Positions 11,937-16,515 of a stretch of DNA of 32,000 nt are shown piece by piece (positions within the stretch are counted from its first letter, which is position 1; each line of letters opens with the position of its first letter). Below the pieces are notes generated by a model. That model had not been told where the DNA came from. It saw only the letters and a list, made by a program, of their open reading frames with translations, and ran no database searches. Position numbers and translations under genes: made by a program. The stretch is from positions 11,592-43,591 of the forward strand of contig SUPR01000017.1 of the NCBI GenBank assembly GCA_005191425.1, written 5' to 3'. The DNA is from Candidatus Helarchaeota ASGARD archaeon Hel_GB_B. Its GTDB lineage: Archaea > Asgardarchaeota > Lokiarchaeia > Helarchaeales > HEL-GB-B.

Positions 11937-12320
11937 TTACACATCTTCAGATAATTCTTCATTTCTTAAGATCGTATCTTTTATTGAATCATTTGCAAGT
12001 GTTAGAATTGTTTTATAGAATTCATAAGCTGGAGTTCTCGGTGTAATATTCTCTAAAACTTTTTTTGATTCATCACGAAGATATTCATCTTGAGGCAATA
12101 TTTGACCTACGATTCCGGATTTCGTCATATTTCTAATAATATTTAATAAACTATTTTTAATCTCTTCATAACATTTAAAGTCAATGGAATATGCTTTACT
12201 TAATAATTTTGATATGAAATCTGTTTTAGAAAAAATTAGTTGAGGTGGTGCGTTATGAAGTAATAAACCGATACAACTTAATTTTTGCAAATCATCTGAA
12301 TCAATCCACTCATTGTCCAT
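11937..12320 (-). pseudogene. Probable C-terminal fragment of a larger protein, abutting the IS110 3' end
   Basis: 127-aa helical ORF starting 12 nt after the IS110 transposase stop, with no room for its own promoter; a neighbouring frame reads KEENIELILRW just upstream, suggesting a frameshifted continuation. Confidence 0.4.
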
Positions 12321-12332
12321 CTTAAAATTAAT

Positions 12333-13505
12333 TCAATATTCTCTTCTTTTTAACATATACCAAATTATTGTTAGTAATTTTCTCGCACCTGCACATATTG
12401 CTTTCCAATAATTATCGGTTCACTCTTTTATCTTCAACACATATCTTTTTATTGGATTTTTTTCCTTTTGCATATATGTTCTTACATATTAAAACAACTG
12501 CTCTTCTTAGATATTTATTTCCACCCTTCTGAATTTTTCCTGTTATATGTTTTTTATGCCAGGACTGATAGACCTTTAGTGCAAGTCCAGCCCATTTGAC
12601 CAATTTTCTTGGACTCTGAAAATATGTGATGTCTGTTATTTCAGCCATAATAACCACGGATATATTTGGTTCCACTCTAAGAATTGTTAATAGAAGCTCT
12701 ATTTGCTTTTTGAATTGTTTATTATTCTTTGCTATTACATAATAAGTTGATTCTTGCTTTTTCTCTATTATACTTAAAAATTAGAGCTGTATTGTATCAT
12801 TTTAAAAAGTTACAGATTCGATTTCATCGAACTTATCTTGAAAATTTTTAAATTCCTTTATTTGAGTTTCGTCCTTTACTAAGTATGAATAGTTTCCTTT
12901 AATAACACTTAAACTTTTATCATCAACCGCCCTTATTGATGCTAAACTTAATAATTCCAAGCCTTGCTTGGAATTCAACAATTTCTTATATTTAAAATCT
13001 TTTTGGTGGAATATTTGGTTTACCCTCTGTTTTATCTTTGTTTTTTCATTTATAATTTTGTACCTATACCTAACTGCTTTCCTTAAATTGAATAATTCAA
13101 CAAGAGGGATTAACGATGGCTTCAATCTACTATCTCTATGCGCCACGGCGATCCTCCTTGCATCAAATTTGTTAGTTTTTTTACCCTGTGTTGTTTTTGT
13201 CTGTTGCGGATTTGCTACTAATATGTCAATCCCATTATTTACCATTTCAAATACTAGTTTGAAATGATATTGTGCTGTTGATTCCACAGCAACACTTATC
13301 ACCTTATATCTTCTTATTATTTTAATTAAACGATTAATTCCAACATAGTTATTTAACAATTCATCTTTTCTTTTAATATTTTATCTTCGTCCACTATGCA
13401 ATATGCCATTATATCCCTATGCACGTCAATACCCATTACCGCTCCTTTTTTTCTTTTTCCTTCACCCTCTTCCAATTCCAAAAAATTTTTATTTTTGTTT
13501 CTCAT
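12333..13505 (-). pseudogene. IS110-family transposase/recombinase pseudogene
   Basis: ATG 13505 gives MRNK...VMGIDVHRD (DEDD D1), then VAVESTAQYH (E), NPQQTK..GKKTNKFDARRIA (D-x-x-D with D to N), IMAEITDITYFQSPRKLVKWAGL..VYQS..ITGKIQKGGNKYLRRA (Tnp domain), and KAICAGARKLLTIIWYMLK, TGA at 12335-12333. Several stops and frameshifts. Confidence 0.9.
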
Positions 13506-13507
13506 GA

Positions 13508-13714
13508 TTTATCACATCTTTTATTTGAAAATATGATGGGCTGCAAAACTTGGCATGGACGCCAATTTATATTAGGAGCTCTAAGCTCAATCGGACGATC
13601 CGGCTGCCAAGTTTTCATAGTTTATTTTAGAGGATATAGGCCAGCAGAAGCCCATTCCTAAATAAATTTCATGATAATTGCAGCCCATCACCTTTAATTT
13701 AAATTTGTGATAAA
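13508..13714 (-). ncRNA. Candidate IS110 bridge/seek-type structured RNA
   Basis: Nested inverted repeats: 13508-13516/13706-13714 (9 bp), 13534-13546/13678-13690 (13 bp perfect), 13545-13555/13605-13615 (11 bp), small hairpins at 13576-13588 and 13592-13602, and a long hairpin at 13621-13666. GC-rich compared with its flanks. Confidence 0.5.
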
Positions 13715-13743
13715 AAAAGATTTCTATTGGAAATGAATTTTTC

Positions 13744-16515
13744 CTAAAAATTTGTTATGTGTTTATTTTTTAACATATTACGAAGTACTGTCTGCAATAT
13801 TCCGCCATTTCTGTAGTATTTAACTTCCATTAAATTATCCAGTCTAATTTCGACTTTAAATTTTTTAATTTGTTTTTGATTTTTGTCTTTAATTATTATA
13901 TTTAATTCTTTATTTGGGCCTAAATCATTTAATCCTATAATATCATATAAATAATCTCCCTTAATCCCTAATGTATCAATATTCTCGCCACTTTTAAATT
14001 GCAATGGTAATACACCCATTCCTATTAAATTACTTCTATGAATTCGTTCAAAAGATTCTGCAATTACTGCTTTTATTCCTAATAACTGAGTCCCTTTAGC
14101 TGCCCAATCTCTCGAACTTCCAGTACCGTATTCTTTACCTGCAAAAATAATAGTTGGAATACCATTTTCTAAATACTTCATTGCTGCATTATAAATTGGC
14201 ATTTCTTCATTTGTAGGTAGATAAATGGTCCAGCCACCTTCTCTATTGGGTGTTAATTTATTTTTTAATCTGATATTGCTAAAAGTACCTCTTATCATAA
14301 CCTCATGATTACCGCGTCTAGACCCGAAAGAATTGAATGAATTTATATTTATGTTATGAGATATTAAATATTGGCCCGCAGGACTGTCTTTTGGAATTGA
14401 TCCCGCCGGCGATATATGGTCCGTCGTTATTGAATCCCCCAAGATAGCTAAACACCTTGCATTTTTTATATCCGATAATTTAGGCATTTCTATTGAAAAA
14501 TCTTTAAAAAAAGGCGGTTCAAGTATATAGGTCGAATTCTTATCCCATTTAAATAATTTTCCACCTTGAATTTCCAAGCTATTCCATTGTTCAGTTCCTT
14601 CAAAAATATTTGAATATTGTTTTTTAAAAATACTTGAATTAATATTTTTATCAATTAATTCCATAATTTCATCATTTGTAGGCCAAATTTCACTTAGATA
14701 GACTGGATCTCCATTTGGATCATAACCCAATGGCTCTTTTTTTAAATTTATTAAAATATTACCTGCAATTGCAAAAGCAATAACTAACATGGGTGATGCT
14801 AAATAACTTGCTTTTATTAATGGGTGTACTCTACCTTCAAAATTTCTATTTCCAGATATTATACTTACAGCAATTATATTTTTATTAAGTATTATTTTTT
14901 CTATTTCATTAAATAAATGACCACTATTTCCAATACATGTAGTACAACCATATCCAACAATATGAAATCCTAACCCCTCTAAATATGGTAAAAGTCCAGC
15001 TTTTTCTAAATAATCTTTTACAACTCTTGACCCTGGAGCTAAACTTGTTTTTATAAATGGTTTAACTTTTAGACCATGTTCAATAGCTTTTTTAGCTAGT
15101 AATCCCGCTCCTATTAAAACATTTGGATTTGATGTATTAGTGCATGAAGTAATAGCAGCTAAAACTATAGTACCATCAACAATTTCATCTATGAAATATA
15201 GCTCATTTCCAAATCCTTTTTGAATTTGCTTTTGATTAAATTTATTATCTTTAAAGTTTTTATTATGGTTATTTAAATTAATAGAACTACTCTTAGAATT
15301 ATTATAATTTTTTACTATTTCTTTAAATGCATCTTTTAATTTAATTAATGATACACGATCTTGAGGCCTTTTAGGGCCCGCTAAACTTGGTACAACATTT
15401 CCTAAATCAAATTCTATTATCTTACTATATACTACTCTATTATTATTATATTCTTTTAAAAAAAGTCCCTGCTCAATTGTATATTTCTTGACCAAATTAA
15501 CAAGTTCTTTATTCCTACCACTTAATTCTAAATATTCTAAAGTTTTTGTATCAATTGGAAAATATCCAATAGTAGCTCCATATTCTGGTGCCATATTTGA
15601 AATTGTAGCTCTATCGGGTAATGATAATTGTTTTAGTCCTGTGCCAAAAAATTCAATGAACTTTCCTACAACACCATATCTTCTAAGTAATTCTGTAATT
15701 GAAAGAACAATATCCGTAGCACAAACATCATCATCCAATTTTCCATATAATTTTACTCCAACCACATCTGGTAATGATAAATAATATGGTTGCCCAAGCA
15801 TAACCGCTTCTGCCTCAATTCCCCCCACACCCCACCCAACTATACCAAGTCCACCAATCATAGTCGTGTGTGAATCAGTCCCTAAAACCGTATCTGGATA
15901 GGCATATAATTCATCTCCAACTTTCTTCATTTGAATTACAGAAGCTAAATATTCTAAATTAATTTGATGAATTATACCTCTTCCGGGTGGAATTACTCGA
16001 AAATTATTAAAAGAATTTTGTGCCCATTTTAATAAACTATAACGTTCTTTATTTCTGGTAAATTCTTTTTTTTCATTTAATTCTCTTGATTTTTTAGTCC
16101 CAAAATAATTCACTTGAATTGAATGGTCTATTATCAAATCAGCTGGAATCACCGGATTAATCTCGGAAGGGTCTTTCCCAAGTCTATATAATGCAGATCT
16201 CATAGCAGCTAAATCCACTACAGCTGGCACACCTGTAAAATCTTGCAATATAACCCTAGCCGGTTTGAATGGAATTTCTTTCCTCTCTAAGTTATTAACT
16301 GTCCAATTAGCTATATTTTTTATATCTTGTACCTTAATAATCTGCCCATCAAACTGCCGTACGATAGATTCTAATAAAATTTTTATTGAAAAAGGTAATT
16401 GAGAAATCTTATCTAAACCATATTCTTTTAATTTATCAATTTTGAATATATTAAATTCTTTATTATCTATTTTAATCCGTTCTTTAACATTATTTGGGTC
16501 AAAATTTTCATTCAT
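13744..16515 (-). CDS. acnA: Aconitate hydratase A (AcnA/IRP1-like)
   Basis: RVILQDFTGVP, DLIIDHS, GIIHQINLE, GTDSHTTM, AAITSCTNTSNP, GYGCTTCIGNSG, SGNRNFEGR, DHISPAG and YGTGSSRDWAAKG; 923 aa. Confidence 0.97.
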   Translation of the reverse strand: MNENFDPNNVKERIKIDNKEFNIFKIDKLKEYGLDKISQLPFSIKILLESIVRQFDGQIIKVQDIKNIANWTVNNLERKEIPFKPARVILQDFTGVPAVVDLAAMRSALYRLGKDPSEINPVIPADLIIDHSIQVNYFGTKKSRELNEKKEFTRNKERYSLLKWAQNSFNNFRVIPPGRGIIHQINLEYLASVIQMKKVGDELYAYPDTVLGTDSHTTMIGGLGIVGWGVGGIEAEAVMLGQPYYLSLPDVVGVKLYGKLDDDVCATDIVLSITELLRRYGVVGKFIEFFGTGLKQLSLPDRATISNMAPEYGATIGYFPIDTKTLEYLELSGRNKELVNLVKKYTIEQGLFLKEYNNNRVVYSKIIEFDLGNVVPSLAGPKRPQDRVSLIKLKDAFKEIVKNYNNSKSSSINLNNHNKNFKDNKFNQKQIQKGFGNELYFIDEIVDGTIVLAAITSCTNTSNPNVLIGAGLLAKKAIEHGLKVKPFIKTSLAPGSRVVKDYLEKAGLLPYLEGLGFHIVGYGCTTCIGNSGHLFNEIEKIILNKNIIAVSIISGNRNFEGRVHPLIKASYLASPMLVIAFAIAGNILINLKKEPLGYDPNGDPVYLSEIWPTNDEIMELIDKNINSSIFKKQYSNIFEGTEQWNSLEIQGGKLFKWDKNSTYILEPPFFKDFSIEMPKLSDIKNARCLAILGDSITTDHISPAGSIPKDSPAGQYLISHNININSFNSFGSRRGNHEVMIRGTFSNIRLKNKLTPNREGGWTIYLPTNEEMPIYNAAMKYLENGIPTIIFAGKEYGTGSSRDWAAKGTQLLGIKAVIAESFERIHRSNLIGMGVLPLQFKSGENIDTLGIKGDYLYDIIGLNDLGPNKELNIIIKDKNQKQIKKFKVEIRLDNLMEVKYYRNGGILQTVLRNMLKNKHITNF

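Follow-up and report, generated by a model that had tools for sequence, protein, structure and literature searches.

Positions 13690 to 13534 of the window (the whole stretch of 32,000 nucleotides analysed here, from the Helarchaeota genome Hel_GB_B), read on the minus strand, very probably hold the bridge RNA gene of an Asgard-archaeal insertion sequence (IS) of the IS110 family, an assignment drawn from comparison of sequences across related elements. The bridge RNAs described in 2024 come from bacterial IS110 and IS1111 elements, and are under development as programmable recombinases. The RNA in the window is a new structural variant of the known IS110 bridge RNAs, and matches of its internal loops to flanking DNA and element ends map three of the four putative guides, namely left-target, right-target and left-donor. 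The gene order on the minus strand is acnA (open reading frame 13744–16515), a 207-nt segment flagged in an earlier note on this DNA, and a broken IS110 recombinase gene. The earlier note had read this segment as a candidate bridge RNA, and had named absence of the structure from intact relatives as grounds for refuting it. The comparison bears the reading out: intact IS110 relatives carry the structure upstream of their recombinases, its helices covary strongly, and its loop arms follow the left flank, the element right end and, with weaker statistics, the right flank from lineage to lineage. Coordinates of all features are collected in Table 1.

The gene fragments next to the RNA matched the Pfam families DEDD_Tnp_IS110 (PF01548, 1.4e-14) and Transposase_20 (PF02371, 3.5e-16), and the RNA ends 28 nt before the recombinase start codon on the same strand. 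The pseudogene corresponds to residues 2–402 of a 461-aa relative, and is disrupted by in-frame stops (12802–12804 and 12781–12783), at least two frameshifts, and a 3′ truncation. No GAATATAAA, the sequence that marks the right end, was present in the right orientation anywhere in the window. The window copy is therefore a relic, with a broken recombinase and a missing right end.

Searches with the largest recombinase fragment returned 17 full-length homologues, most of about 450–465 aa, and the named sources of these were Promethearchaeota or Helarchaeota MAG proteins, in agreement with the Asgard-like lineage that the earlier note had proposed. The relative P0002 scored 226 bits against the NCBIfam model "IS110 family RNA-guided transposase" (NF033542, cut-off 140). 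A profile of the homologues yielded 17 metagenome loci, and ten loci had uninterrupted recombinase frames of 451–466 aa. Every locus with enough upstream DNA (14 loci) contained a 155–161-nt segment closed off by a long helix, at the position corresponding to 13690–13534 of the window. The RNA was upstream of the recombinase in all loci, and the right end of relatives extends approximately 100–140 nt past the recombinase stop. A covariance model of the RNA had matches in 6 of 151 genomes sampled from the phylum, including the genome studied here.

Table 1. Features of the IS110-family element in the window, and related copies elsewhere in the same genome (G000).
Feature	Position	Strand	Basis or remark
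Putative bridge RNA core, 157 nt	13534..13690	-	P1 closing hairpin A (predicted target-binding) and hairpin B (predicted donor-binding); fold, covariance model, covariation
Closing helix P1	13690-13678 with 13546-13534	-	Fold and compensatory changes
Candidate right-target guide, 5′ arm of hairpin A internal loop, GAAAUUUAUUUA	13659..13670	-	Complementary to core and right flank (TAAA-TAAATTT)
Candidate left-target guide, 3′ arm of hairpin A internal loop, UAAAAUAAAC	13620..13629	-	Same sense as left flank, core and first IS base
Candidate left-donor guide, 3′ arm of hairpin B internal loop, AAUAUAAA, then invariant UUG	13566..13573	-	Same sense as element right end (GAATATAAA)
IS left-end leader, 71 nt	13691..13761	-	Starts at C 13761 and contains two small hairpins
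T7 run in IS left-end leader	13718-13712	-	
Left subterminal inverted repeat in IS leader	13711-13701	-	
Left junction: target left flank and A-rich core (AAA 13764-13762)	13762..13773	-	Doubles as last acnA sense codons
IS110 recombinase pseudogene	12309..13505	-	Pfam, open reading frame map, tblastn with P0002
Element left end sequence, CACATAAC		-	Would adjoin the right end GAATATAAA at a circle junction
Sister copy C36 with left end and bridge RNA	G000:C36:2764-3026		
Example MITE copies	G000: C146:1287-1374; C182:36805-36892; C97:14779-14850		

Folding of the minus strand between 13500 and 13720 gave a free energy of -79.6 kcal/mol, compared with -45.1 ± 4.1 kcal/mol for shuffled sequences (z = -8.5; 0 of 200 shuffles as good), while the plus strand of the same region reached -70.1 kcal/mol (z = -6.1), leaving the minus strand better by 9.5 kcal/mol. 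The RNA is modelled as a three-way junction in which P1 encloses a pair of hairpins whose internal loops are both large, and the 13-bp perfect outer stem and two enclosed hairpins that the earlier note had described were recovered in this fold. Six helices were defined from a MAFFT alignment: P1, A1 and a distal stem-loop (both in hairpin A), and B1, B2 and B3 (in hairpin B). The internal loops were unpaired in the consensus; that of hairpin A measures about 11 x 10 nt, and that of hairpin B about 7 x 13 nt. Across the 15 cores in the MAFFT alignment, 34 of 46 pairs changed on both sides, and 81% of cells were paired versus 33–47% with slid partners. The covariance model alignment (20 loci) had compensatory changes in 34 of 45 pairs, with 89% paired versus 32–43% in slid controls and all six helices supported. 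RNAalifold recovered the structure partly when flanks were included in the alignment, which was resolved by trimming the alignment to the P1 boundaries. The covariance model (R1) scored the window core at 134.6 bits. Comparison with Rfam produced chance matches only, both at gathering scores across the whole window and at permissive E-values over 13300–13800.

Several conserved G-U pairs in the family alignment form only on the recombinase-sense strand (e.g., UG in 17 and GU in 16 of the 20 rows), which fixes the RNA strand as that of the recombinase. In the window, the A/C opposition at 13638/13653 is a G-U pair on the minus strand, as recognized earlier. Two alternative partners had also been proposed for TTGGC at 13550–13554. 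Covariation upheld pairing with 13606–13610 (helix B1), but lent no support to pairing with 13561–13565.

The element extends outwards beyond the RNA. Comparison of this region with the genome by blastn identified 13696–13771 as a repeat with many near-identical copies, several of them at contig ends, and copies consisting of the repeat alone run across 13696|13695 into an A-run followed by GAATATAAA. We initially modelled the ~95-bp repeat as a REP-like target of the IS, with the IS starting at 13695 (5 nt before P1), but this was ruled out, as the guides match the outer ends of the repeat and the repeat itself is mobile. A full element thus has the order left end, RNA, recombinase, right end, and the 72–95-bp repeats, judged by their sequence, are MITEs in which the subterminal inverted repeats link the left end of the IS directly to its right end. 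This genome has at least 31 of them, and the congener G001 gives at least 43 matches. The family comprises at least three subtypes, all of which start with (A)TAAAC and end with GAATATAAA, and the near-identity of the MITEs suggests recent activity. The IS leader in the window is 98–100% identical to the left part of type-1 miniature copies, and both the leader architecture and its covarying hairpins are kept in all metagenome loci. A MITE of the G001 subtype is inserted in an IS110 recombinase gene of the same clade (L035:383-469) with an A-run core at both junctions, an arrangement that shows these units to move by their outer ends and puts the core at approximately AAA. At this locus, the parasite hosts its own miniature derivative. 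Elsewhere, a tandem pair of MITEs shares a common ATAAA core (C129).

Matches between the RNA guides and the DNA place the true left end of the IS at C 13761, on the acnA stop codon, and 256 nt of the left end remain in the window (13761–13506). With the left end at 13761, the present acnA stop (13744–13746) lies inside the IS, and, within 13744–13773, the last five codons in the acnA frame (H I T N F) together with the stop derive from the IS left end. The acnA left flank reads ...AAT AAA, and the guide predicts that TAA-ATTT originally came next, implying that the insertion hit the original TAA stop of acnA, after ...L K N K. Accordingly, the earlier placement of the RNA region about 30 nt past the natural acnA stop does not hold, because the present stop is IS sequence. 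The segment does belong to a non-coding IS end, as the earlier note had stated, but the position given for that end needs revision, with the true end 71 nt further out.

Correspondence between the RNA and the DNA outside the element was clearest for hairpin A. The 3′ arm of its internal loop (loop A) comprises 8–10 nt with an invariant AAAC end, and copies the DNA immediately outside the left end, locus by locus. Variants of this putative left-target guide include UAAAAUAAAC in the window, UUAAUAAAAC in L033, AAAUGAAAC in L039, CUUAUAAAC in L040, CAUAAAAAAC in L041, and UUUUAGAC in L046. In the window, the guide matches 13769–13761 at 9 of 10 positions. The junction register was set independently, using the conserved left-end motif, and in fixed register across 14 loci the guides scored 8.93 out of 10 against their own flanks versus 6.64 in cross-comparisons (0 of 100,000 permutations as high). 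When every RNA column was scanned without bias against 44 DNA positions, the left-target diagonal was the sole one returned, at 96–99% identity. In the close relatives L033 and L047, differences between the guides equal those between the flanks exactly. The rule also applied in four loci outside its derivation, which the covariance model had located in other Asgard genomes and in which the arm again repeats the DNA upstream of a short left end (10/10 in L052, 13 nt in L053, 9/10 in L056, and 8 nt in L055), and although the RNAs of L053 and L056 are near-identical, the guide differs exactly as the flanks do.

The 5′ arm of loop A, the candidate right-target guide, was compared with the last bases of the element and the DNA beyond its right end, and was complementary at 12 of 12 positions in L038, 8 contiguous positions in L032, and 7 contiguous positions in L042. 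A permutation test over full elements gave p of about 0.03, with L033 off by one base, a weak statistic because flanks and guides consist of low-complexity A/T or purine/pyrimidine runs. Flanks of the MITEs point to the same target. For 16 complete MITEs in this genome, the left 5 nt scored 3.56 compared to 1.98 at random ATAAA sites, and the right flanks (n = 16, 7 nt) scored 4.06 versus 2.58 against the window guides (0 of 20,000 resamples as high). From MITE flanks and guides together, the target is predicted to resemble AAAAT-AAA-TAAATTT. The core covaries as well: in L046, each of the two guides and each of the two junctions has AGA, where other loci have AAA. The junction sequence AAAATAAAC recurs at three insertions of this IS type that arose independently (window, C36, and L017). 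As the MITEs hold the donor sequences and have flanks that fit the guides, they were probably moved in trans.

For hairpin B, the 3′ arm of the internal loop (loop B) carries a putative left-donor guide that reproduces the element right end at 8 of 8 positions in seven of eight loci, across four guide variants. The variants with exact matches are AAUAUAAA, AUCAAAAA, UUUAAAAA (L040), and AUUAUAGA (L046), with AAUAUAAA corresponding to the right end GAATATAAA, and AUCAAAAA to ATCAAAAAG. The matches lie 90–133 nt after the recombinase stop. The guide in L039 (UUUAUAAA) reached 7 of 8 at most, with ambiguous positions. A search for the right-donor guide turned up no sequence that consistently complemented, or covaried with, the element's first 12 nt, and such a guide may have been missed because its counterpart in IS621 is short and discontiguous (PMC11208160). 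No relation to flanks or ends emerged for the four variable nucleotides in the 5′ arm of loop B, nor for the strands of the junction or the terminal loops. In AT-rich lineages, an invariant AAAUUG that follows the left-donor guide is complementary to CAAATTT (left end, +6 to +12), which we attribute to chance given that there was no covariation in the GC-rich lineage.

Other copies of the element in this genome are also incomplete. The sister copy C36 retains the left end and an RNA that is 94% identical, without a recombinase, and has already lost P1 pairs, while C154 is a diverged wreck, and C133 consists of a recombinase C-terminus and right end only. No intact recombinase of this clade is assembled in the genome, which is 94% complete, and scanning the genome contigs for recombinase peptide patterns gave no match. 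In C36, and likewise in G001 loci L017 and L021, the left end is present with all or part of the RNA and with no recombinase downstream. Homology in these copies ends at the RNA or within it, suggesting that elements were repeatedly truncated from the 3′ side.

Conserved structure directly preceding a start codon could also be expected of a 5′ leader that controls translation or stability of the recombinase mRNA and has no guide function. Many relatives have an extra small hairpin over the start region, the 9 nt before the AUG in the window (13516–13508, UGUGAUAAA) are complementary to 13714–13706 of the left-end leader (UUUAUCACA), and the long 5′ UTR of ISPpu9 is a regulatory leader of this kind (PMC12288879). 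However, leader function gives no reason for 8–10-nt copies of outside DNA, and of the far right end, to change in step across lineages, and we consider it an improbable substitute for guide function. The two roles are not exclusive, as in other IS110 elements the bridge RNA is obtained by processing of this same transcript. Read-through from acnA could yield an RNA in which the helix between 13508–13516 and 13706–13714 forms and thereby hides the recombinase start, where other lineages have a local hairpin instead.

A feature acting as DNA, either as cruciforms at a recombination site or as inverted repeats of the IS ends, appears less probable still. Both strands fold well, and true subterminal inverted repeats (about 12–15 bp) do occur, just outside the RNA. 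Against this stand the G-U pairs conserved on one strand only and the energetic advantage of the minus fold, and also the mobility of MITEs that do not have the RNA segment, which means the segment is not needed in cis as a site. The earlier note had offered a further alternative, an element of the acnA 3′ UTR bound by apo-aconitase. The position downstream of acnA on the same strand speaks for it, but we regard it as refuted, because the RNA is contained within an IS that landed on the acnA stop, with the acnA frame merely continuing into the IS end, and it recurs without acnA in C36, C154, and all metagenome loci.

If the segment is a bridge RNA, loop A would read the target, with its 3′ arm equivalent to the left flank plus the A-rich 3-nt core and pairing with the bottom strand, and its 5′ arm complementary to the core plus the right flank. 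Loop B would read the donor, its 3′ arm being equivalent to the element right end plus the core. Extrapolating from IS621, the RNA-bound DEDD/Ser recombinase would synapse the circularised junction of right and left ends with an AAAAT-AAA-TAAATTT-like site, and strand exchange would take place at the core. Internally deleted copies with both ends (the MITEs) would probably be mobilised in trans. Recombinase binding and catalysis with this RNA are inferred by analogy, and transcription possibly starts from the T7-AT run 28 nt upstream of P1, which is present in all loci and would serve as an archaeal TATA box. Taken as a whole, a scenario in which an Asgard-wide IS110 clade uses a bridge RNA unlike all those described (in having a closing helix that makes a three-way junction, left guides that both sit on 3′ arms, and a core of 3 nt rich in A), expresses it from an internal archaeal promoter, and drives a swarm of MITEs in trans, strikes us as evenly poised between right and wrong.

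The closest functional model is IS621, in which target and donor are read by the first and the second loop, respectively, and the RNA is transcribed from a promoter rebuilt across the circle junction (Hiraizumi et al. 2024; Durrant et al. 2024, PMC11208160). As in IS621, the Asgard RNA is encoded in a long non-coding left end that precedes a DEDD/Transposase_20 recombinase of the same orientation, and has two stem-loops with internal loops, of which the first and more variable would be for the target, and the second and more conserved for the donor. The putative guides are similarly 8–9 nt long including the core, with one arm for each DNA strand. Unlike IS621, there is no separate 5′ stem-loop, and a 10–13-bp closing helix instead creates the three-way junction. 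The order of the arms is mirrored relative to that given in the text of PMC11208160, with the guides for the left halves, which would pair with the bottom strand, on 3′ arms, so that the pairing geometry proposed here is an assumption. The core is A-rich and about 3 nt long (AAA or AGA) rather than CT, and the RNA, preceded by a T-run, begins approximately 71 nt into the element and not at a junction promoter. Moreover, no right-donor guide was recognised, the hosts are archaeal, and there is no sequence or Rfam similarity.

Some features are shared with the IS1111 group (Siddiquee et al. 2024; Durrant et al. 2024), namely long subterminal inverted repeats (here about 12–15 bp, e.g., ATCGTTAACCTGATA / TATCAGGTTAACGAT in L042), and guide nucleotides in a multi-branch context. 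In IS1111 elements, however, the RNA is downstream of the recombinase, in the right end, whereas the Asgard RNA is upstream. The long left end with RNA upstream of the recombinase, and the shorter right end, place the element in the IS110 group rather than IS1111. Like ISPpu9 and MITEPpu9 (PMC12288879), this IS110-family element has miniature non-autonomous copies of its ends. Unlike MITEPpu9, the Asgard miniature copies are far more numerous, have no recognisable sRNA cargo, and consist essentially of left and right ends.

A literature search found no description of an Asgard bridge RNA, and the only paper found on archaeal IS110 recombinases was phylogenetic. With its mirrored arms and closed junction, the Asgard family would be a second solution to the task that bacterial bridge RNAs perform, wired differently from the first, and this bears on how the recombinase tetramer reads its RNA. 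It would also offer an orthogonal scaffold with AT-rich targets and, if the reading is true, a bridge recombinase system that targets AT naturally. It has been hypothesized in the literature that Nop5/C/D-box RNPs derive from IS110 systems. The RNA described here provides a concrete archaeal molecule for comparison with that hypothesis and, if true, a living archaeal example of the connection proposed between the guide RNAs of IS110 elements and the C/D-box RNPs of archaea and eukaryotes. For annotation, the element explains a repeat family that reaches dozens of copies in a genome and fragments the assemblies of Asgard MAGs, and demonstrates that IS ends can pass for C-terminal extensions of genes such as acnA.

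Several smaller observations concern the recombinase and its surroundings. A 127-aa open frame (11937–12320, minus strand) lies immediately downstream of the truncated recombinase in the window; it has no Pfam match, and is outside the IS as relatives define it. Right ends of L032–L046 have an inverted repeat straddling the recombinase stop codon, and 40–100 nt after that stop, just inside the right subterminal repeat, they carry the motif GGAGGT-N7-9-(A/T)TGTA. The clade of P0002 has approximately 25 extra N-terminal residues, and P0002 and its relatives have a C-terminal extension of around 70 aa (residues about 392–461) past the NCBIfam IS110 model, with the conserved end ...LLK.LL.SV.
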